This document shows, in pieces, positions 1,835-63,432 of a stretch of DNA of 64,000 bases (positions within the stretch are counted from its first letter, which is position 1; each line of letters starts with the position of its first letter). Made by a program: the position numbers and the translations under genes. The notes under the pieces are model-generated. The model made no database searches, was not told the DNA's origin, and saw only the letters and a list, made by a program, of their open reading frames with translations. The stretch is from Acidobacteriota bacterium (lineage in GTDB: Bacteria > Acidobacteriota > UBA890 > WLXD01). Location of the stretch: NCBI GenBank assembly GCA_965248695.1, contig CBDFKD010000002.1:5161691-5225690 (forward strand), written 5' to 3'.

Positions 1835-3238
1835 GAGATATAACCGGAAGTTGTGGATGGGAGGAAAAAGAAAGGCGGCGTAACCTTCGCTGGGATCATC
1901 AACAACCAGCAGCCGGCTGTGGAGGCCGGGAAGGAGACGCCACTCGTGCTCAAGATTATCGGTGGATCGGACGCGGAGGAAGGACAGCTGACACTGGACG
2001 TCGATGAGCTCGCCCGGCAGGGCGCGCTGCAGATGCTGGCAACAGCACTGGAGTGGGAGGTTCAGGAGTATATCCAGAGCCACGCCGGGCAACTGGATGA
2101 AGCCGGCCGTCGGCAAGTGGTACGCAACGGTCGGGCTCGCGCACGCAAGATCACGTTGGGGTGCGGGACGGTGCAAGTAGCCGCGCCACGGGTCAACGAC
2201 AAGCGGCTCGACGAGCAGGGACTGAGGCAGCGGTTCAGCAGTCGGATCCTGCCGCCCTACATGCGGCGCTCGCCGAAGGTGGCGGAGGTGCTGCCGGTGC
2301 TGTACCTGCGGGGCCTGTCGACGGGCGACTTCAAGGAGGCGCTGCCGATCTTACTGGGACAGGAAGCCAGCGGGCTGTCGGCATCGGCGATCTGCCGGCT
2401 GACGAACGCCTGGAGCACGGAGTACGAGGCATTCCGGAAGCTGGATCTGTCCACCAAGCAGTACGTATACGTGTGGGCGGACGGTGTGCACTTCAACATT
2501 CGACTCGAGGATGATCGGCTGTGCACGCTGGTGATCCTGGGCGTTTTGCCGGACGGAACCAAGGAGCTCATCGCGGTCGAGGACGGGTATCGAGAGAGCA
2601 CCGAGAGCTGGGCGTTCGTGCTCCGGGAGCTGAAGCGTCGAGGCATGCGGGCGCCGCTCGTGGCAGTGGGTGATGGGGCGCTGGGGTTCTGGGCGGCGGT
2701 GCGGGATGTATGGCCCCAGACTCGAGAGCAACGATGCTGGGTGCATCGGCTTGGCAACGTGCTCGACAAGCTACCGAGGCGGCTGCAGGCCAAAGCCAAG
2801 CGCGCGCTGCACGAGATCATCGGTGCGCCAACGCGCGAGGATGCTCAGGAGGGCATGGCGCGGTTCGCAGCCGACTACGGCGCCAAGTACTCCAAGGCCG
2901 TGGCGTCGTTGCAACGCGACTCCGACAAGCTGCTGACGTTCTACGACTTCCCCGCCGACCACTGGGTTCATCTGCGCACGGCCAACCCGATCGAGTCGGC
3001 GTTCGCCACCGTACGCCTGAGACAACGCGTCACCAAGGGCGCCGGCTCACGCACCAAGGCGCTGACGATGGCATTCAAGCTCCTGGAGATGGCACAGCAA
3101 CGATGGCGCCGCATCAACGCTCCTCACCTCACTGCCCTCGTACTCGAGGGCGCCACATTCGTCGATGGAGTTCACCTGATCGCTAGCGAAGACGCCGCCT
3201 GAACAAATCCACCGATCCACAACATTTGCAAATAACTC
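1835..3238 (+). mobile_element. IS256-family insertion sequence (about 1.4 kb) flanked by 9-bp direct repeat gtgtcgact
   Basis: Imperfect about 30-bp terminal inverted repeats (gagatataaccggaagttgtggatgg vs rc gagttatttgcaaatgttgtggatcgg, 22/31 identical); 9-bp TSD at 1826-1834 and 3239-3247; single mutator-type transposase inside. Confidence 0.8.
1853..3202 (+). CDS. IS256-family (mutator-type) transposase
   Basis: 449 aa; strong resemblance to IS256 transposases (…YVYVWADGVHFNIRLEDDR…CWVHRLGNVLDKLP…ANPIESAFATVRLR…). Confidence 0.9.
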   Translation: MDGRKKKGGVTFAGIINNQQPAVEAGKETPLVLKIIGGSDAEEGQLTLDVDELARQGALQMLATALEWEVQEYIQSHAGQLDEAGRRQVVRNGRARARKITLGCGTVQVAAPRVNDKRLDEQGLRQRFSSRILPPYMRRSPKVAEVLPVLYLRGLSTGDFKEALPILLGQEASGLSASAICRLTNAWSTEYEAFRKLDLSTKQYVYVWADGVHFNIRLEDDRLCTLVILGVLPDGTKELIAVEDGYRESTESWAFVLRELKRRGMRAPLVAVGDGALGFWAAVRDVWPQTREQRCWVHRLGNVLDKLPRRLQAKAKRALHEIIGAPTREDAQEGMARFAADYGAKYSKAVASLQRDSDKLLTFYDFPADHWVHLRTANPIESAFATVRLRQRVTKGAGSRTKALTMAFKLLEMAQQRWRRINAPHLTALVLEGATFVDGVHLIASEDAA

Positions 3239-33786: not shown

Positions 33787-34054
33787 AGAGCCTGCGTATC
33801 GGGAGCTTCATGCGGCCGCCGACAGGATCGAGCCGCGCCTGGAGCGGGCGTTCGTACGGGCCATGGAGCGCTTGCGGGATCAGGTGTCGATCAACGAGCT
33901 AGCGCTAGCGCTGTCGGCCGGCGATGCGAAGGGGGCGCTGCGGCGGGTGCCGGTGGGTGAGGTTCGGGAGGCGTTGGAGGGAGTGGGAGACAGCGTGCAG
34001 GAGGCGTTCATGCGCGGTGGAAGACTCGGGGCGAAGCGAATCAATGAGCTCTAG
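33776..34054 (+). CDS. Hypothetical phage protein
   Basis: Shares 40-bp direct repeat (ERAFVRAMERLR) with next gene. Confidence 0.3.
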   Translation: MPRREPAYRELHAAADRIEPRLERAFVRAMERLRDQVSINELALALSAGDAKGALRRVPVGEVREALEGVGDSVQEAFMRGGRLGAKRINEL

Positions 34055-35976: not shown

Positions 35977-35990
35977 AGGACAGCAGTACC

Positions 35991-36280
35991 GAGCGTGACG
36001 TAGCACGCCATTAGGCTACGGCGGCTAACAGGGTCTCTTTAGATCCAGGGGGCCGCGCCCCGGTGGGGACGAATCGGAAGTAACCGAGCGTGACGCGGTG
36101 CGGTACGAAGCCGCGGCGGCTGGTGGATCTTGAAGGATCCAAGGGCCGTGCCCCGGTGGGGACGAATTCGGTAGTACTAAGACATATTCTGAGAGCGTGA
36201 CGTGGCACGCCATTAGGTCACGGCGGCTAACAGGGTCTCTTCAGATCCAGGGGGCCGCGCCCCGGTGGGGACGAATCCGC
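35991..36280. repeat. Three tandem about 100-bp repeat units, each with two hairpins, between scaffold and coat genes
   Basis: Units start at 35991, 36087, 36193; each ends ccagggggccgcgccccggtggggacgaat; units 1 and 3 near-identical, unit 2 diverged but hairpin-preserving. Confidence 0.8.
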
Positions 36281-52980: not shown

Positions 52981-53670
52981 ATGAGACTCCGCACTGCCAT
53001 TCTCCTCATCGCCCTCGCCACCCTCGTGGGCTTCGGTGCCGGATGGTGGCACTTCGCACCCTCGCTGCTGTCGCCTGAGGGGCTGGTCGGGCTGGCCTCG
53101 GGGCTGCTGGATCAGCAGCGCCGCGAGTCGCTGGCCCAGTACGAGGCGATGCAGGCGACCCACGCGGCCGAGATCGCCGCCTATGAAGCCGACCTCTCCG
53201 CTACAGAACGAGCGCTCGGCCAGCTGGGTCTCCGACTCGCCGAGCGCGATGCAGAGGCGGTCGAGGCGGAGCAGGCCCTTGGCCGCACTCTCCAGCTGGC
53301 GGCACAGCGCGAGGCGCAGCTGCGCGATGAGATCTTGGCGGCCGTCCCCGGGCTCGAGGTGCCCCTGGAGGAGCTACAGGCACAGCACCGCGGCGTGGTG
53401 AAGGGGTTCGAGCTACGGGTCAAGGCGCTGCAGCAGAGCGTCGAGACTCGTGACCAGCTGATCGTGAACCTGCGACAGCAGCTGGGTACCACTCGCCAGC
53501 TATACGAGACAACGCAAGCGCGGCTCGACCTGGCGGAGGCGCGGCGCAAGAGCCTCGAAGGACGGCGCGTGCGGCTAGCTCCAGCGCTGCTGATCGGCGG
53601 GATACGCGACCTGAGCGGCACAGACGGCTGGAGGGCTGGCGTCGCCGTCGGGATTGCGATCACCTGGTAG
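52981..53670 (+). CDS. Spanin-like protein (N-terminal TM + coiled coil)
   Basis: Start ATG 52981; MRLRTAILLIALATLVGFGAGWW then coiled coil. Confidence 0.5.
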   Translation: MRLRTAILLIALATLVGFGAGWWHFAPSLLSPEGLVGLASGLLDQQRRESLAQYEAMQATHAAEIAAYEADLSATERALGQLGLRLAERDAEAVEAEQALGRTLQLAAQREAQLRDEILAAVPGLEVPLEELQAQHRGVVKGFELRVKALQQSVETRDQLIVNLRQQLGTTRQLYETTQARLDLAEARRKSLEGRRVRLAPALLIGGIRDLSGTDGWRAGVAVGIAITW

Positions 53671-53722
53671 GAACCTCGAAGCTGCGCCTGACCAATCCGG
53701 TGCCGAGACGGTGAGGATGCAG

Positions 53723-54421
53723 CTAGCTGGAGTTGAACCGAACCTCTAGCTCCTTGACAACATCCAGCAGGGTTGCTGTCGACGCCGGTAACAATACGTA
53801 GTACAGCGGCTCTCCGTCTCCAGCACCGGCCCGCGGTTCGATAACAAAAACCTTTTCGGCGAGAGTTGCCGCAAATGACGTGACGCTGTCTTTGGCCTCG
53901 TAGGTCACGCGGTACCCGATGCGCAACGGGAGCAAATGGTGTTCGTCAGCGTAGGGGCTCACGGTTGCCGGTTCGAGGGTCTGCTCGACGAACTCCTGGA
54001 ACGCAGAGGAGAACATCCGTCGAAAGTCGATGTCGAGGGTGCAGATGCAGAAACTGTCCTGTGTCTCTGCGATGGGGACCATCGCGTCAACGTCGCACAG
54101 GCCGGACTCGACGAAACACTGCATGAGCTGGGCGTGGAACTCGTCCGCGTTTTCCGATGTGCCGAGCACCGTCGAGGAGATCCGCCGGGGCTCTACCCGC
54201 GTATGCATGATCGGCACCGCCGTGTCTTCGTCCAGCTGGTACGCGCCCCTCTCGAATACCACGGTATCTAGCCCGGCTTCGCCCAGGTTCGGGTTTACGT
54301 TGTTGAAACCGAACTCGGTGATGAGCTTGTTGCCAAGGCCTGCTGACAACACGGCCCCCGCAGGAAGCACGTCCGATCTAAAGATGCGCGTCTGGCTGAC
54401 GCTCAGTCGTCGAACCTTCAC
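53723..54421 (-). CDS. Hypothetical protein (232 aa), third gene of a toxin/HTH operon
   Basis: Translationally coupled to upstream HTH gene (4-nt overlap); no recognisable motif. Confidence 0.5.
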   Translation of the reverse strand: MKVRRLSVSQTRIFRSDVLPAGAVLSAGLGNKLITEFGFNNVNPNLGEAGLDTVVFERGAYQLDEDTAVPIMHTRVEPRRISSTVLGTSENADEFHAQLMQCFVESGLCDVDAMVPIAETQDSFCICTLDIDFRRMFSSAFQEFVEQTLEPATVSPYADEHHLLPLRIGYRVTYEAKDSVTSFAATLAEKVFVIEPRAGAGDGEPLYYVLLPASTATLLDVVKELEVRFNSS

Positions 54422-55092
54422 GCGACTATCCCCTGCTCAGCTCCGCTGGAGATTCCGGACGCCGGGCGCGCCTGAACCGAGGGGGCAATCGAGTCGTCCA
54501 TTGTGCTGGCGTAGTGGGAGATGTCGTCCTGCGGGATGAGACTACTGGCCCCTTGGGATTCCAGCCCGCTCTGGGGCACGCAGCTTGGTGCCAGATGCTG
54601 TTGGGTTGGTGCTCCTGGGGCGGGGTACCACCACATTGCCTTGCTGCCGATCGACGAGCCGGCAGAATGCCATATGCGAAGAAGGTCCGCGATCGTGATG
54701 GCAGTAGACGTATCCTCCTCTACTGCTCGGCCGTGGAACTCTGGATCCTCGTCAAACGAGGCCTGCCACAGGGTGGCAGGGCTGCGATCCTCGATCTCAA
54801 ACAGCATCTCACCAAAGCTCTCGAACCGCACCGACAATCCGATGTCGAAGATCTCGGCCAGCCGCTTAAGCGTCCCGATCCGCCCCGCCGGTTCGTTCGG
54901 ATCCTCTAGGCGGGAAATAGCTGACTGGCCGGTTCCGAGGAGTTCGGCAAGTTGCTCCTGAGATAGGCCCCGGTGCTTCCGGAGGATCCGAATCTGTGAC
55001 GCTACGACAGAATCGACGAACGAGTCGATGTAGGCATGCCGGTACTCTGGGTCACGAAACTCCTCGCGTAAGTGGTCTATGTCACGGGTCAA
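54418..55092 (-). CDS. XRE-family HTH regulator (HigA-like antitoxin with disordered C-terminal tail)
   Basis: LRKHRGLSQEQLAELLGTGQSAISRLE. Confidence 0.7.
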   Translation of the reverse strand: MTRDIDHLREEFRDPEYRHAYIDSFVDSVVASQIRILRKHRGLSQEQLAELLGTGQSAISRLEDPNEPAGRIGTLKRLAEIFDIGLSVRFESFGEMLFEIEDRSPATLWQASFDEDPEFHGRAVEEDTSTAITIADLLRIWHSAGSSIGSKAMWWYPAPGAPTQQHLAPSCVPQSGLESQGASSLIPQDDISHYASTMDDSIAPSVQARPASGISSGAEQGIVA

Positions 55093-55666
55093 AACGCTGC
55101 CTCCAATCCGCGTCGTCGATGATCGCTACTCGTCGCTTATTGGCTTTCGCACAACTGTTCCGGGGGTTCCACTTGCCGCCCACCTCGAACGCGCCCATCA
55201 GGAACGTGAACTCCGTGGTCTTGTCGATCGGCCCCTTGCACAATATGGGTCGTAGCTGCACTCCTCCGACTTGGATGCGGAGCTTGTAGAGATGCCGGTA
55301 CTTCCGTGTCGCGTCTTTGATTGGACCGGCAAGGAGCTCTGTCGAAACCGTCGGACCCTCTTCCCTGAGCAGTTTCGCCTTGTCGTTGAATCTGGCCTGC
55401 GCCCGACGCTGAAGACCATCGCGCCAGGAGGTAATCGTCCCCTGGCCTCTACCATCTACGTACTCATGCAAGGAGAAGATGGGCGTTGACGGTACCTTAT
55501 CACGATACTGTGATGCTGCGAGTTGACGGCGCTTTCGGCGACTCACCTGGCGGGCAGCGATTATCACGGGCCATCCGGCGGGTATCGGGCGCACCCCCCA
55601 GTTCCTCCCCCACCGTAGAAAACACCGTGCGGCCCTTCGAAAAGGCCGCCCGGCGCTTGCGGGCAC
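55082..55666 (-). CDS. Putative RelE/HigB-like toxin (phage gp49/DUF891-like); true start probably internal
   Basis: …RHLYKLRIQVGGVQLRPILCKG…FTFLMGAFE… resembles gp49-family; overlaps downstream HTH by 11 nt (toxin-upstream HigBA order). Confidence 0.4.
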   Translation of the reverse strand: MPASAGRPFRRAARCFLRWGRNWGVRPIPAGWPVIIAARQVSRRKRRQLAASQYRDKVPSTPIFSLHEYVDGRGQGTITSWRDGLQRRAQARFNDKAKLLREEGPTVSTELLAGPIKDATRKYRHLYKLRIQVGGVQLRPILCKGPIDKTTEFTFLMGAFEVGGKWNPRNSCAKANKRRVAIIDDADWRQRFDP

Positions 55667-55904
55667 GTCGAAGCCCCTCAGCTTCGCGCGGCGGGAAAGA
55701 TAGCACGCGAGAAGATCGCCGGCACTTCAGCTGCCTGCCAGCAGATGCGGCGCCAGGCATGGCACAGGTGCTCGCGGCCAAAAAGCGGTCTTGATGAGCA
55801 ACCAAAAGAGCGGCCGGAGGAGGTATCGTAGCGAACGTACCGTTCCGACCGCTCTTTCGTTCTTCGTGTACCGGGTGGTGGTGGGCTGGTGCCGGCTCCG
55901 GGCT

Positions 55905-55946
55905 TCCTATCTACGGGTCACGGGTTCGATCCCCGCCACCTCCACA
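55905..55946 (+). other. tRNA 3'-end-like fragment (T-arm GGGTTCGATCCCC + acceptor-like CACCTCCA); candidate att-site remnant
   Basis: T-loop consensus and acceptor 3' strand present but no foldable 5' half upstream. Confidence 0.35.
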
Positions 55947-56407: not shown

Positions 56408-56561
56408 GGGCTTGGATCTGGTCGCATCAAGAGCCTCAGCGGCCGGCGGATCAGGTTCGGGCGGCCCGCCGTGCTCATCGGTGCCGTGCGGAGCCCTGGG
56501 CGTGGATGGGAGCCGGGTGTCGCCGTCGGGATCGCGGTTACCTGGTAGGGAGGCGTGTGAT

Positions 56562-56877: not shown

Positions 56878-57032
56878 TAATTTCTGGATAATTTGCAGTT
56901 GCTTCTGCAGTTCACCTGTACTGAACGAAGACGAAGTGATCGACCAGTACGGCATCGCGCCCGAGCGGGAACACCAGAAAGGCCGCCTGCGGCTGATCAG
57001 CTTACGAGAGGCGTCTGCCTGAGAAGAAAGGT

Positions 57033-57119
57033 GCCATCGTGGCGAAATCGGCAAACGCACCCGGTTTGCGACCGGGCGGCTGTCTAGGCCTTGTGGGTTC
57101 GAGTCCCACCGATGGCACC
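57033..57119 (+). tRNA. Class-II (long variable arm) tRNA-like gene, Leu-type scaffold, non-canonical anticodon loop UUUGCGA
   Basis: Acceptor GCCATCG/CGATGGC, UG at 8-9, 3-bp D stem GCG/CGC with AAATCGGCAAA loop, anticodon stem CCCGG/CCGGG, 16-nt variable arm, T arm GTGGG-TTCGAGT-CCCAC, discriminator A. Confidence 0.65.
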
Positions 57120-57639
57120 TAAAGTACCTCCAGCAGCATCGAACCGTAGCCGCCGTGCCGCCACGATGGCGAATGTTACTTGTAACAGTATGGCGCAACG
57201 TGACACAGACCGTAAGGAACCGTCGAAGCCCGGCCCTGATGCCGAGCGGCTGAAGATCGACGACGATCCCGAGGAAGCCCTACAGCGGCTCCTGAAGAAC
57301 GCCCCCGCGCCAGAAGAACCGCGACCGCCCCGTCGACCGCGTTGACTGACAACAGCCGGTATTCAGCGACCGTCGCCACCCTCAGCAGATTTCAACAGGT
57401 ACATACTCCCGAATACCTTTGAACAAAATATCGGGTGGCCCTCGTTTCTTCGATAGGCCACCCGAAGAAGTCCCGTAGCTCAGGGACACCCGTCTCACGT
57501 GCCCCCTAGGTTAGCACAAGCGAAGCGCTCCACAGCGCCGGTTTTGAGATAACGAACCAAAGGTGGTCGTCGTGAATGCCGGTCGTGTCGTGAAAGCTGT
57601 CGCCGGCCTCAACAATCACCCCGCTGCACCAGCTGATCG

Positions 57640-57735
57640 GATTATGTCGACCTTCTTGCTGAACGCGTTTGTTAGGCGAGTAAATCTGCGCATGTTCATG
57701 CGCATGGTCAGGTTCTGCCGCTCGATTCGCCGGAG
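57640..57735 (-). pseudogene. C-terminal fragment of an IS1-family transposase (…ERQNLTMRMNMRRFTRLTNAFSKK…)
   Basis: Matches conserved C-terminal motif of the intact IS1-family transposase at 59026..59895 but diverged in sequence. Confidence 0.5.
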
Positions 57736-57892
57736 AGCCGATGAGCTAGAAGAACTTCTCATCGAAAGCGTCGATGACCCATCCGACCTCGACCACGAGC
57801 GCGTCAAGGCTCTCGAATACAGCCAAGCCGGTATCAGGCCCCATACCTTCGCCGAAGACTACGCGCGCGACCACAAGCGTATCCATTCGGCA
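57727..57892. repeat. 165-bp segment duplicated (near-)identically at 62548-62712
   Basis: Directly read identity. Confidence 0.9.
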
Positions 57893-58098: not shown

Positions 58099-58701
58099 AT
58101 GGTTCTAGGCTCTGACAGGTTGTGGGAAACGGCGTTTAGGGGACTCATGGACCCGAAATTGCTTGTCGAAAGGTACCAGTACTTATCCAGGAAGCGACGC
58201 GAGATCGAGGGGAAGATGGCGGCCCTGGCGGAAATGCAGCAAGTCTTAGGGGTGGAATTGGACGACGTAAACGACCAGCGCGCCATGCTTTGGCTTCAGC
58301 TCGATCGACAGGCTCTGCTTGATCGTGACGATATCCGCGAGTATCTCGGTGACGCCACGAAGCCGCCTGGCATCAAGCGCGTGCGTGCCGAACAGGTAGA
58401 CCGAGACTTGATGAGATACCTGGCCAATCAAGATGGTCGGGAATGGCGCGTCCGGGACATCCTCACGCACAAGAACGCCATGCGGCTCGGCCATATGTCT
58501 GATAGCGGTGTTCGGGCGGCGATTAACCGCGCCATCGAGCGCGGCGAACTGGAGAAGACTGGCGGATGGGGGATCGTTCGCGTATCGGACCGAGGTAAGG
58601 AGTCTTACGGTCTTGATGCCGAGGCTGACTTGGAAGAACAAGACATGGACCTGGCCGAGAAAGAGGCCATGGAAAAGGAGAAGGCTAGGCCACCGTTCTG
58701 A
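58099..58701 (+). CDS. Hypothetical protein (200 aa) in low-GC island
   Basis: AT-rich upstream region 57990-58098; GGGAGAGAG RBS. Confidence 0.45.
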   Translation: MVLGSDRLWETAFRGLMDPKLLVERYQYLSRKRREIEGKMAALAEMQQVLGVELDDVNDQRAMLWLQLDRQALLDRDDIREYLGDATKPPGIKRVRAEQVDRDLMRYLANQDGREWRVRDILTHKNAMRLGHMSDSGVRAAINRAIERGELEKTGGWGIVRVSDRGKESYGLDAEADLEEQDMDLAEKEAMEKEKARPPF

Positions 58702-59004
58702 ACAAAGAGCCCGCCGCTGCGGTAACAGCGACGGGCTCCGACAACTTGTGATGGCCTCGTGGACAACAGACGGTCAAGTCGCGGGACTGGAAATCCCGAG
58801 ATCCCGGTTCGACACCGGGCGGGGCCTCACCTTTCTCCCCTGACAGCAAGGAGGGTCAGATGATAGCGCGAGCACCACCGTCAGCGCATCCCTGAACGCC
58901 GAAGGGGCCGGGGTGCGTCTCACGATGCTCCCCGGCCACCTATAAGTCGCCCGGCCCGCTGCACGAACAGCGAACCGGGCTAGATCCAAGACGCGGGCAT
59001 AGGC

Positions 59005-59930
59005 CGCATCGGACCCTCACAGCCATTGTGGTCCTGCCCGCCATCCGGAGCAAGACCGATGGCGAACGTACTGGCCCCCGAGAAGAAGCGCATGATCATC
59101 GCCGCCCTGGTGGAGGGCAACAGCATCCGCAGCATCGAGCGCATGACCGGCTGTCACCGAGACACGATCTGCCGGCTGCTCGTGCGGGTAGGTGAAGGCT
59201 GCGAAGCCATGATGCGCGAGCGGTTCACCGGTTTGCGCCTTGACGATCTCCAGGTCGATGAAATCTGGACCTACGTCCAGAAGAAGCAGGCCACGGTGAT
59301 CAGGTCCGGCAAGCGCGTGAATCCCAAGCATGGTGATCAATGGGTTTTCGTCGCGCTCGATGCCGAAACGAAGTTGGTGCCGCATTGGATCGTCGGCAAG
59401 CGCGACGGCTACAACTCCTACCAGATGATCTCGGAGCTGGCCCGTAGGATCGACGGGCCGTTCCAACTGACCACGGACGCTTTCGCTGGCTACAAGGCCG
59501 CTCTCGGAGTCGTGGCGGCTCGTGGTATCGACTACGCACAGCAGACCAAGAGCTATACGGCCACGAATCCATCCTTCGGACGTTACTCACCACCAAGGGT
59601 CAGCCACTGCACAACTCAGGTTGTGGCCGGAGATCCAGATCCGGAGGCGATCTCCACGAGCTACGTCGAGCGTCAGAACCTGACCATGCGGATGAGTATG
59701 CGACGGTTCACCCGGCTGACGAACGGCTTCTCAAAGTCGCTGCGCAACCTGGAAGCCGCTGTGTCGCTGCACTTCGCCTGGTACAACTTCGTGCGGATTC
59801 ACGACAGCCTGCGGAGCACGCCGGCCGTTGTGGCCGAAGTAGTTAGTACCGAGTTGGCGATGGACGACCTGCTGGCCTTCGAGGCGGGCTACTAATGCTC
59901 GGTGATTTCCACAGGATATCCACAACGGGT
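59005..59930 (+). mobile_element. IS1-family insertion sequence (boundaries approximate)
   Basis: Imperfect terminal inverted repeats around cattgtggtcctg / caggatatccacaacgg; single fused InsAB-like ORF. Confidence 0.45.
59026..59895 (+). CDS. IS1-family transposase (single-ORF InsA-InsB type)
   Basis: N-terminal HTH; C-terminal YVERQNLTMRMSMRRFTRLTNGFSKSLRNLEAAVSLHFAWYNF matches IS1 InsB C-terminus. Confidence 0.85.
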   Translation: MWSCPPSGARPMANVLAPEKKRMIIAALVEGNSIRSIERMTGCHRDTICRLLVRVGEGCEAMMRERFTGLRLDDLQVDEIWTYVQKKQATVIRSGKRVNPKHGDQWVFVALDAETKLVPHWIVGKRDGYNSYQMISELARRIDGPFQLTTDAFAGYKAALGVVAARGIDYAQQTKSYTATNPSFGRYSPPRVSHCTTQVVAGDPDPEAISTSYVERQNLTMRMSMRRFTRLTNGFSKSLRNLEAAVSLHFAWYNFVRIHDSLRSTPAVVAEVVSTELAMDDLLAFEAGY

Positions 59931-62415: not shown

Positions 62416-62547
62416 GACGAATACTCATACTCGACGAGGTCGCATAGAAACCCCATGACGCTACCGAACGCAGACACCCACACGCCACTGCGGAATCAGG
62501 CGGGTAGCGCAGTGGGCGAGGCCATCGTCACGCTTCTCATGGAGCTT

Positions 62548-62712
62548 CGCCGGAGAGCCGATGAGCTAGAAGAACTTCTCATCGAAAGCGTCGATGACCC
62601 ATCCGACCTCGACCACGAGCGCGTCAAGGCTCTCGAATACAGCCAAGCCGGTATCAGGCCCCATACCTTCGCCGAAGACTACGCGCGCGACCACAAGCGT
62701 ATCCATTTGCAC
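62548..62712. repeat. Second copy of the 165-bp duplicated segment
   Basis: Identical to 57727-57892. Confidence 0.9.
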
Positions 62713-63432
62713 TTTTGGGGGTGCAGAGAAGACGAGGGTCGCGATTTTTGCGTTGTGTACCAGGCGGGGCTTGGTGACGGCGATGAACGTTTTGGGCTGG
62801 CCAGCGGATTCGTCATCGACGAGAGCGTTCAAACGGAAGCGCTCGGGCATCGCGGCGACGACCGAGAGCAATTTGTGCTTGTTCCGGTTGTCCAGTCTTC
62901 TCAGAAGGGAGAGGGGCGCCATCACGGGATCGTCACCTTGGTACGGCTGAACTCGCTCGATCAAGGATCTGGCCTCAGCGGGAAGGCTGGCAATGCGCCG
63001 AGCCCCGCGCGATTCGTATGCCCGTTCGGAGTCGAAGATCGGAAACAGGGTCAGTGTGTCATCAAGATCCGCCCCAGAAAGCTCCCAGGCGATGTAGTCG
63101 AGCGAGCACCGCAGGTTGTGGATGCAATCGCCGATGGTCAGCGCCCACTCACTACTGGGCAAAGCAGGAGGATCTTTGACGCGAGCGACGTAGCGGACTT
63201 CGTCGATCTCAGCCTCAACGACGATTCGATAGAGGTTCGCTTCAAAGAAGGAGTCAGTTTCTCTTTTAAGCGCTTCGAGGTGCTGTCTCGCCCGACGAAG
63301 TTTGGCGCGACTTCCATCAAGCCCCAATTGGCACAGCTCCTCGGGATTGAGGTCGACGACGACGGGGAGGCGGCGTGAGCGGCGTGAGGCTAGTCGAACT
63401 CGACGCCTTCCAGAAGCTCGTCGACGGTGCAT
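62566..63432 (-). CDS. Hypothetical protein (288 aa) with possible HEPN-like Rx4-6H motif (RLDNRNKH); antisense ORF 62455..63378 is an alternative
   Basis: Diverse composition with amphipathic helices (IHNLRCSLDYIAWELS); downstream of and overlapping minus-strand HTH gene; C-terminal 50 aa lie in the 165-bp repeat. Confidence 0.4.
   Translation of the reverse strand: MHRRRASGRRRVRLASRRSRRLPVVVDLNPEELCQLGLDGSRAKLRRARQHLEALKRETDSFFEANLYRIVVEAEIDEVRYVARVKDPPALPSSEWALTIGDCIHNLRCSLDYIAWELSGADLDDTLTLFPIFDSERAYESRGARRIASLPAEARSLIERVQPYQGDDPVMAPLSLLRRLDNRNKHKLLSVVAAMPERFRLNALVDDESAGQPKTFIAVTKPRLVHNAKIATLVFSAPPKVQMDTLVVARVVFGEGMGPDTGLAVFESLDALVVEVGWVIDAFDEKFF

Follow-up and report, generated by a model that had tools for sequence, protein, structure and literature searches.

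A leucine-type class II tRNA with an alanine anticodon in a mobile XRE/ImmA-associated cassette of an Acidobacteriota bacterium

Which amino acid, if any, would be delivered by a tRNA that has the body of a leucine tRNA and the anticodon of an alanine tRNA? The question is raised by a tRNA gene at positions 57033 to 57119 of a 64,000-nucleotide stretch of DNA from an Acidobacteriota bacterium (GenBank assembly GCA_965248695.1, contig CBDFKD010000002.1, positions 5,161,691 to 5,225,690), which is referred to here as the window. The gene is an intact class II tRNA gene with tRNA-Leu architecture and identity elements and the alanine anticodon UGC. Rather than a core tRNA of the host, it is one element of a conserved small cassette, in which a gene for an ImmA peptidase with an XRE-type helix-turn-helix (HTH) domain is followed by the tRNA and then by a small open reading frame (ORF). 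The cassette is mobile and is found at unrelated genomic positions beside toxin-antitoxin genes and insertion sequence (IS) elements. Our favored interpretation, with a probability of roughly 0.45, is that the cassette carries a natural Ala-to-Leu missense tRNA, which would accept leucine and insert it at GCA and GCG codons.

A preliminary description of the locus, made from the letters of the window, had noted Leu-like arms, a discriminator A, a 16-nt variable arm, and the anticodon loop UUUGCGA with UGC as the anticodon. The letters read exactly so, and ARAGORN and Rfam concur. The gene extends for 85 nt to the discriminator base A73 (57033 to 57117, plus strand), and 17 of 17 stem pairs are formed in a manual parse. 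The 7-bp acceptor stem (GCCATCG/CGATGGC), which is Watson-Crick throughout, is followed by U8 and G9, and the D arm (GCG-AAATCGGCAAA-CGC, 57042 to 57058) is followed by A26. The anticodon arm (CCCGG-TTTGCGA-CCGGG, 57060 to 57076) carries the anticodon TGC at 57067 to 57069 (plus strand, as located by ARAGORN and Rfam), in a loop with U33 present, G37, and U32/A38. An anticodon UGC reads GCA, plus GCG by wobble. The 16-nt variable arm (CGGCTGTCTAGGCCTT, 57077 to 57092, plus strand) has a 4-bp stem (GGCU/GGCC) and a 5-nt loop, and the variable region ends in U48, which is able to pair with A15. The T arm is GTGGG-TTCGAGT-CCCAC, with A73 at 57117, and the acceptor and T stems have the canonical lengths of 7 and 5 bp. 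The CC after A73 (57118 to 57119, plus strand) is encoded with no terminal A; copies of the tRNA on two other contigs (L183 and L185) encode CCA.

The match to the Rfam tRNA model RF00005 scored 58.2 bits (gathering score, 29; E value, 5.6e-10), which exceeds chance by a wide margin. The Rfam alignment gave the same arm partition as the manual parse, with the variable arm treated as an insertion. When the sequence was folded by thermodynamics alone, the anticodon stem was lengthened. An alternative fold with a 6-bp stem and a 5-nt loop, which the preliminary description had pointed out, is possible in the window copy but is not conserved in relatives, because it requires a U32-A38 pair that is unavailable to most of them (loops there are CTTGCAA, TTCGCAC, and CTCGCAA). 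A tRNA pseudogene or a remnant of an integrase attachment (att) site was considered and rejected on the basis of the 17 stem pairs, the score of 58 bits, the lack of a second copy of either half of the tRNA in the 64 kb, and the presence of identical copies elsewhere.

ARAGORN named the gene tRNA-Ala(tgc), a label that derives solely from the anticodon; the arm partition from ARAGORN is the same as that from Rfam. For a comparison of identity, the window tRNA was aligned with the annotated tRNAs of Escherichia coli K-12. When matches were counted by hand on the alignment, the stretch from U8 to A26 (GTGGCGAAATCGGCAAACGCA) was identical at 18 of 21 positions to E. coli tRNA-Leu(UAG) (leuW) and at 16 of 21 positions to tRNA-Leu(CAG), versus 11 to 12 of 21 for tRNA-Tyr and tRNA-Ser. 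Over the whole molecule, identity was 63 to 66% to E. coli tRNA-Leu and 50 to 57% to the Tyr, Ser, and Ala tRNAs (50% for tRNA-Ala(GGC)). The Leu features of the window tRNA include A73, A14, A15/U48, the G18G19 spacing, and a 3-bp D stem (GCG/CGC), and the A15:U48 pair, Leu-type D arm, and long variable arm are traits of tRNA-Leu. The tRNA-Leu trait that is missing is a leucine anticodon (NAG or YAA), and the UGC found in its place is a trait of tRNA-Ala (NGC anticodon). The alanine determinant G3:U70 is absent, as the tRNA has C3:G70 and an acceptor stem without any G:U pair, and the class I body with a variable loop of 4 to 5 nt that characterizes tRNA-Ala is also missing. The earlier remark that UGC matches no Leu, Ser, or Tyr isoacceptor was thus borne out, in that UGC sits on a Leu-type class II body.

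A73, A14, A15/U48, the G18G19 spacing, and the 3-bp D stem mark a substrate of leucyl-tRNA synthetase (LeuRS) in E. coli (Asahara et al. 1993, as cited in PMC13363220), and E. coli LeuRS ignores the anticodon (PMC13363220). With an anticodon-blind LeuRS and Leu-type identity elements, charging of the window tRNA by LeuRS would therefore be expected, and both this charging and the decoding of GCA and GCG are what we infer for the window tRNA.

The cassette was recognized through the small conserved ORF that follows the tRNA in every cassette copy. In the window this ORF encodes 59 amino acids (MAQRDTDRKEPSKPGPDAERLKIDDDPEEALQRLL..., 57166 to 57345, plus strand). Four homologues (P0001 to P0004) were found in a large protein collection, and their contigs were retrieved; a further copy, L062 from Planctomycetota, came from a pattern scan described below. 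The order of tRNA and small ORF was seen in L181, L182, L183, L184, and L062, and the tRNAs of L181, L182, and L183, each followed by the small ORF, are 100% identical to the window tRNA. In L181, a complete gene for a protein with XRE-HTH and Peptidase_M78 (ImmA/IrrE) domains, as detected with Pfam, stops 11 nt before the tRNA. In L062, an ImmA homologue that is 33% identical to that of L181 stops 7 nt before the tRNA, which is again followed by the small ORF. In the layout of intact cassettes, the tRNA thus begins 7 to 11 nt past the ImmA stop codon, an ORF of ∼50 to 70 amino acids comes next, and the whole cassette spans ∼1.6 kb.

The copy in the window is incomplete at both ends, with its left limit at 56918 and its right limit at 57411. 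This fragment (56918 to 57411, plus strand) aligned by blastn with positions 1714 to 2204 of L181 at 99% identity, and the DNA beyond both ends is unrelated. What is left of the ImmA gene is a 3' stub (56918 to 57022, plus strand; blastn, and tblastn to the L181 ImmA protein): 99% identity to the intact gene of L181 is confined to the final ∼35 codons, and the reading frame stays open as far back as 56768, with weaker similarity (tblastn). The surroundings of the other copies differ as well. On the 1.5-Mb contig L183, the flanks beyond the tRNA and the small ORF are unrelated to the window, and IS1595 and IS481 transposase genes are nearby. A HipB/HipA toxin-antitoxin pair lies directly downstream of the small ORF in L181 and L182; HipBA is not present in the window, L183, or L062. 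No tRNA was found directly downstream of ImmA in any of 80 viral contigs with ImmA homologues, so that an ImmA-tRNA arrangement is not general. Inspection of ORFs and called genes around the tRNA in the window, L062, L181, and L183 revealed no synthetase gene.

A candidate role in recoding the cassette's own ImmA gene was rejected after the GCA codons of the L181 and L062 genes were compared with 50 homologues. The fraction of Leu at the GCA columns was 0.08 and 0.01, versus 0.29 to 0.73 at CTG/CTC columns, and GCA codons were not enriched at Leu or hydrophobic columns in either gene. As GCA is absent from Leu-conserved columns, the cassette needs no such tRNA to read its own genes.

Two further features of the cassette were observed at the edges of the tRNA. 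In L185 (positions 170 to 186), only the last ∼17 nt of the tRNA are present, with unrelated DNA upstream and the small ORF downstream. Such a structure would be expected where an integrase attachment junction falls within the 3' end of a tRNA gene, and it suggests that the tRNA gene can serve as an attachment site. A 13-nt near-palindrome (CGCCACGATGGCG, 57159 to 57171), located 40 nt past the tRNA, is conserved in L183, L184, L185, and L062. Over its first 12 nt it is perfectly complementary to nucleotides 1 to 12 of the tRNA, and diverged copies retain complementarity at 11 to 12 of these 12 positions. When the precursor fold was predicted, the acceptor stem gave way to a 13-bp helix formed with the near-palindrome, for which roles as operator, att core, or anti-acceptor are conceivable.

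The possibility that the tRNA is inactivated, which had been raised in the preliminary description, was not supported: no stem is broken, three other contigs carry the tRNA at 100% identity, and UGC persists in diverged homologues, in one of which the anticodon stem has changed with compensation. This homologue, the tRNA of L184, was found via the small ORF and not via its anticodon. It is 77% identical to the window tRNA, and its loop TTTGCAA keeps UGC, while the anticodon stem CCCGG/CCGGG has become CCGGC/GCCGG with compensation. The L062 tRNA is 82% identical, keeps UGC, and has compensated changes in the acceptor stem. L062 was found with a pattern that required NGC, and L184 is the sole test of anticodon conservation that is free of such bias. 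Retention of UGC in three lineages and 100% identity across three genomic contexts provide moderate evidence that the tRNA, including its anticodon, may be maintained by selection; the evidence is graded as moderate because only one of the lineages is unbiased.

Scanning one genome per species with a pattern that combined a Leu-type D arm, a YTNGCR anticodon loop, a long variable arm, and a T loop yielded 93 loci with a Leu-type body and an NGC anticodon. Comparison of these loci indicates that tRNAs with a Leu body and an Ala anticodon are real and common; a preference for Ala anticodons is not implied, because NGC was imposed by the pattern. The anticodons of class II tRNAs at these loci, as called by ARAGORN, were CGC (53), UGC (23), GGC (12), and AGC (6), and three Leu-type tRNAs with the valine anticodon CAC were found near them. 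Gemmatimonadota accounted for about 45 of the 80 loci listed, and other phyla included Chloroflexota, Planctomycetota, Verrucomicrobiota, Pseudomonadota, Bacteroidota, and Acidobacteriota. An Azospirillum isolate (Pseudomonadota) has two tandem copies. Covariation was evaluated in 84 distinct intact sequences, among which 98.4% of cells were paired, a percentage slightly inflated by the exclusion of a few copies that fell short of 16 stem pairs out of 17. Both sides change in 19 of the 24 pairs, and the covariation score was 0.70, compared to 0.17 for shuffles and ≤0.13 for slid partners. The variable-arm helix also covaries. Of the 82 sequences with a standard pair at 3:70, 81 have C:G, G:C, or U:A there, and A73 is nearly universal. 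The Leu-body/UGC pattern had no matches in viral contigs, and BLAST of the tRNA against phage, plasmid, and E. coli collections returned no full-length close relative, with nothing at all in E. coli.

Several other observations were made at these loci. One copy, in L073, has G3:U70 on a Leu-type class II body. In Gemmatimonadota loci among L003 to L093 (for example, L006, L018, L021, L026, L052, and L064), Leu-type class II tRNAs are present in multiple copies with CGC, GGC, UGC, AGC, and CAC anticodons. A gene for a Ser/Thr protein kinase with a beta-propeller-like tail was found in the same 8-kb locus in 19 cases (18 in Gemmatimonadota and one in a Planctomycetales metagenome-assembled genome, L035), and in many of these it adjoins the Leu-type tRNA within a few hundred nucleotides, often in divergent orientation. 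In L063, from Zixibacteria, a tRNA-like sequence that ARAGORN did not call (positions 2240 to 2300, minus strand) lies just upstream of a Leu-type tRNA(UGC) and has good acceptor and T arms, an anticodon-like hairpin with the loop GUUUGCA, and a D arm that is almost missing.

Among the three meanings that the preliminary description had offered for the odd anticodon, a suppressor-like tRNA is the one that we favor, more exactly a tRNA resembling a missense suppressor. In intact cassettes, the tRNA would be cotranscribed with, or transcribed after, the XRE/ImmA gene and then processed. The processed tRNA would be charged with leucine by the anticodon-blind LeuRS and delivered to the ribosome, which would read GCA, and GCG by wobble, as leucine. 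Expression would probably be low-level or conditional, and the window copy may be poorly expressed because its promoter-bearing upstream ImmA gene has been lost. There are precedents for such decoding, in that anticodon variants of E. coli tRNA-Leu, including one for GCG, reassign codons to Leu in vitro (PMC13363220) and mismatched anticodons of irregular tRNAs have been shown to work on sense codons in E. coli (Mukai et al., PMC5389517).

A number of points weigh against a missense function. Substitution of Leu for Ala across the proteome should be harmful, and in the host genes of the window GCG makes up 37% of Ala codons; GCA, the least used of them, accounts for 9.6% (10 per 1000 codons). 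In the window lineage C36 is followed by G37, whereas A37 is found in 82 of 84 relatives; this G37, or the possible U32-A38 pair, could weaken decoding. No sigma-70-like promoter was seen upstream of the tRNA, and the upstream gene is a stub. The GCA codons of the cassette ImmA genes are not at Leu-conserved columns, and the NGC anticodons of the 93 loci come from the search pattern, with only L184 unbiased. Furthermore, some irregular tRNAs are charged yet unused in translation and others are inactive (Mukai et al., PMC5389517).

The last point bears on the possibility, doubtful in our estimation, that the gene specifies a tRNA-shaped RNA that is not used for decoding. Such an RNA might be a regulator or decoy, a substrate or cofactor of a toxin-antitoxin system or kinase, or an RNase P/Z signal between the ImmA and small-ORF mRNAs, and it might be charged yet kept off the ribosome. 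The irregular tRNAs that are charged without decoding, or inactive, are found near toxin-antitoxin and transposon genes (PMC5389517). In L181 and L182 the cassette lies directly upstream of HipB/HipA, the conserved 13-nt element pairs with tRNA nucleotides 1 to 12 and displaces the acceptor stem in the predicted precursor fold, and the window lineage has G37 and a possible U32-A38 pair. HipA-type kinases target aminoacyl-tRNA synthetases. However, HipBA is not an obligatory partner, as it is absent from the window, L183, and L062. A purely processing or structural role would leave the anticodon free to change, but homologues of 77% and 82% identity have both retained UGC, with stem compensation in L184, and all tertiary and identity positions for a working tRNA are intact. 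It is unlikely, although conceivable, that the window copy is a hitchhiking remnant that was trapped by IS rearrangements and is untranscribed and decaying, whatever the intact cassette does elsewhere. Homology to the cassette ends at 56918 and 57411, the ImmA gene is a stub, the remains of an IS1-like transposase gene, together with a 162-nt duplication, are found 540 bp further downstream, and the sigma-70-like scan found no promoter-like site upstream of the tRNA. On the other hand, the tRNA and its flanks are 99 to 100% identical to intact copies, with no decay yet, and transcription by read-through or from an unrecognized promoter is possible, since promoters of the planctomycete type fall outside the sigma-70-like model of the scan. 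This explanation covers expression of the window copy only and is compatible with either functional model.

An integration target reshaped by an element, the remaining meaning offered in the preliminary description, would be a host tRNA-Leu gene whose sequence, including the anticodon loop, had been altered by the element. The tRNA is at the edge of mobile DNA, and the att-like junction in L185, where the last ∼17 nt of the tRNA are joined to the small ORF, suggests that use as an att site is possible. This origin nevertheless seems very improbable. Elements that integrate into tRNA genes replace the 3' part and not the anticodon loop, so that the anticodon would be left unexplained. Pfam and NCBIfam showed no integrase gene beside the tRNA in the window, and none was seen in L062 (ORFs) or in L181 and L183 (called genes). 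Neither half of the tRNA recurs in the window, and diverged homologues from different genomes share UGC. The ARAGORN label taken at face value, an ordinary alanine tRNA, is scarcely credible: UGC and A73 would suit it, but C3:G70 stands in place of G3:U70, the variable arm of 16 nt and the D arm are of the Leu type, and the tRNA is 50% identical to E. coli tRNA-Ala versus 63 to 66% to tRNA-Leu.

The Ala-to-Leu missense tRNA that we favor resembles several known systems in part. Allo-tRNAs and polycistrons of irregular tRNAs near toxin-antitoxin or transposon-related genes have been described in Acidobacteria (Mukai et al. 2017, NAR 45:2776; PMC5389517), and some of these allo-tRNAs and irregular tRNAs are missense or nonsense suppressors in E. 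coli (PMC5389517). As in allo-tRNAs, many of which have a long variable arm, the identity elements of the window tRNA clash with its anticodon (PMC5389517), and the neighborhood is also one of toxin-antitoxin and transposon genes, here HipBA in L181 and IS1-like, IS1595, and IS481 transposases nearby. In contrast, allo-tRNAs have a 12-bp acceptor branch arranged as 8/4 or 9/3 and mostly Ser (or Ala) identity, whereas the window tRNA is 7/5 and of the Leu type, and a cassette of ImmA gene, tRNA, and small ORF is not described among the systems of Mukai et al. 2017 (PMC5389517). The window tRNA is best seen as a further, Leu-type variant with a canonical fold of the irregular-tRNA phenomenon of these authors (PMC5389517). 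In tRNAProX and tRNAProA of Streptomyces and relatives, bacterial tRNAs likewise pair one identity with another anticodon, Ala included, and give programmed mistranslation (Schuntermann et al. 2023, PMC10404621; PMC11415595). However, tRNAProX is class I, has Pro identity, and often occurs with a ProRS paralogue, whereas the window tRNA is class II, is predicted to carry Leu, and has no synthetase gene seen nearby. The nev-tRNAs of nematodes also have a Leu-accepting body with a variable arm and a non-Leu anticodon, in their case Gly or Ile, but they are eukaryotic nuclear genes with other anticodons and no mobile cassette (PMC4300185).

With canonical bacterial tRNA-Leu, the window tRNA shares the D arm, A14, A15:U48, the G18G19 spacing, the long variable arm, and A73; the T loop is UUCGAGU versus UUCAAGU in E. 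coli tRNA-Leu, the anticodon is UGC instead of NAG/YAA, and G37 follows C36, unlike the G36-G37 of CUN readers. A parallel in design is an engineered tRNA-Leu variant with the Ala anticodon CGC, with which Leu was assigned to an Ala codon via the anticodon-blind LeuRS (eLife 2026, PMC13363220). That variant is synthetic and was used in a reconstituted system from which the competing tRNA-Ala had been removed (PMC13363220). This in vitro construct was the only literature match for a tRNA-Leu with an Ala anticodon, and no natural bacterial tRNA of this type was described in the full-text literature searched, coverage of which is incomplete, so that an earlier mention is possible. A 2024 review of mistranslating tRNAs covers yeast CUG tRNAs, bacterial tRNAProX, and human variants and includes no type with a Leu body and an Ala anticodon.

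The low-GC mosaic island that contains the tRNA has a prophage on its left. The prophage (∼28 to 53.7 kb of the window) has genes for a DUF4055 portal protein, a P22-type coat protein, a tape-measure protein, and DNA methylases, and to its left are ordinary metabolic genes, including one for a PVC-type heme-binding protein, which may point to a planctomycete-like host. From 54 kb to the end of the window, GC content falls from ∼0.64 to 0.58 to 0.61. The island contains six genes with XRE-type HTH domains and an IS1-like DDE transposase gene, which is intact (59026 to 59895, plus strand; Pfam/NCBIfam), and these domains and the transposase were all that comparison of the island proteins with Pfam, NCBIfam, and PHROGs revealed. 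Exact-protein look-ups of two neighboring window proteins returned no record. The IS1-like transposase fragment downstream of the cassette is a 3' part (57661 to 57725, minus strand; found from inverted and direct repeats and tblastn) and is cut at 57726 by the 162-nt duplication, a perfect direct repeat (57726 to 57887 and 62546 to 62707) whose copies are 4.8 kb apart. The repeat pair probably resulted from an IS-mediated rearrangement. It encloses a second irregular tRNA, the transposase gene, and several small genes, and one copy is the 3' end of a gene at 62566 to 63432 (minus strand). A scan for promoters and terminators upstream of the tRNA at 57033 gave no convincing site with the sigma-70-like model.

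Other features of the window were also recorded. The C-terminal 15 codons of the last prophage gene, which encodes a coiled-coil protein ending in GVAVGIAITW (53626 to 53671), recur with 80% identity 2.9 kb downstream at 56504 to 56549, which suggests a remnant of a second, related prophage end with later insertion of the intervening DNA. Between the prophage end and the tRNA-like genes, three genes with overlapping stop and start codons (53723 to 55666, minus strand) encode a 194-aa protein, a 224-aa XRE HTH protein, and a 232-aa protein; the layout is like that of toxin-antitoxin or defense operons, and the 194-aa and 232-aa proteins have no family match. Within the prophage, three tandem units of ∼85 to 100 nt (35988 to 36279; the outer two are 95% identical) lie just upstream of, and slightly overlap, the P22-type coat gene, and a 40-nt exact repeat is found at 33840 and 34057. 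A sequence at 55874 to 55945 (plus strand) was called tRNA-Arg(cct) by ARAGORN. It falls below the Rfam tRNA threshold, with a partial match of 18 bits to the tmRNA model; only its acceptor and T arm are convincing, its anticodon stem barely pairs, and its 3' half is not repeated in the window. It is probably a degenerate remnant. No copies of either half of the tRNA at 57033 to 57119, or of the two other tRNA-like genes, were found in the window.

The second irregular tRNA (58753 to 58828, plus strand; Rfam score, 50.2 bits) is 52 nt past a gene for a 200-aa coiled-coil/winged-helix-like protein (58099 to 58701, plus strand) and 198 nt before the intact IS1-like transposase gene. It has a class I body with the serine anticodon GGA, U73, an A13:A22 mismatch in the D stem, and the T loop UUCGACA. 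Bacterial tRNA-Ser is class II; U73, A13:A22, and this T loop are presumably features shared with E. coli tRNA-Cys. Homologues of the island transposase adjoin Leu-type tRNAs with Ala anticodons in 3 of the 93 loci. A scan of metagenomes with an alignment of these IS1-like transposases gave 80 loci (L101 to L180; 370 kb in total), 12 of which contained 13 tRNAs called by ARAGORN. All 13 are above the Rfam gathering score (49 to 65 bits), and at least 11 are irregular, with a mismatch between body and anticodon. The irregular types include Ser- or Leu-type class II bodies with UUA (ochre), UAU, or GUC, class I bodies with GCU, and tRNAs with Ala anticodons (UGC/CGC) without G3:U70. Most are 100 to 600 nt upstream of the transposase gene on the same strand, an arrangement like that in the window of the 200-aa gene, the tRNA with GGA, and the transposase gene. 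As a rough control, 450 kb around viral-contig ImmA homologues contained three tRNAs, two of them ordinary. The IS1-like transposase family is thus enriched for irregular tRNAs. When the loci were compared in a search for element boundaries, they were strongly diverged from each other at the DNA level.

Genes for proteins of 110 to 180 aa with an N-terminal coiled coil and a C-terminal winged-helix-like segment end 3 to 180 nt before irregular tRNAs in L001, L014, L040, L045, L063, L068, L075, L080, L091, L092, L101, L103, L157, L169, and L172. Several clusters of these proteins, joined by phmmer, cross tRNA types, and the protein and the irregular tRNA together may be an undescribed module. 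A comparison of the 200-aa window protein with these proteins by hhalign was not significant (E value, 0.22).

A bolder and quite unlikely extension of the missense reading is that the tRNA is the effector of a mobile toxin- or defense-like cassette, in which XRE/ImmA would control the release of a Leu-charged tRNA that misreads GCA and GCG. XRE/ImmA control typically responds to stress or infection. If so, protein synthesis would be poisoned as a form of addiction or abortive infection, or the damage would be biased toward invaders with lower GC content and more GCA codons. On this view, both the many Leu-type tRNAs with Ala or Val anticodons in other phyla and the irregular tRNAs that neighbor IS1-like transposases would represent different versions of a single strategy of "weaponized" missense tRNAs. 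Few natural tRNAs separate amino acid identity from anticodon, and those that do bear on drift of the genetic code, on the tolerance and use of mistranslation, and on the supply of parts for genetic-code engineering. The small and simple cassette described here makes the deployment of missense tRNAs by mobile elements directly testable.

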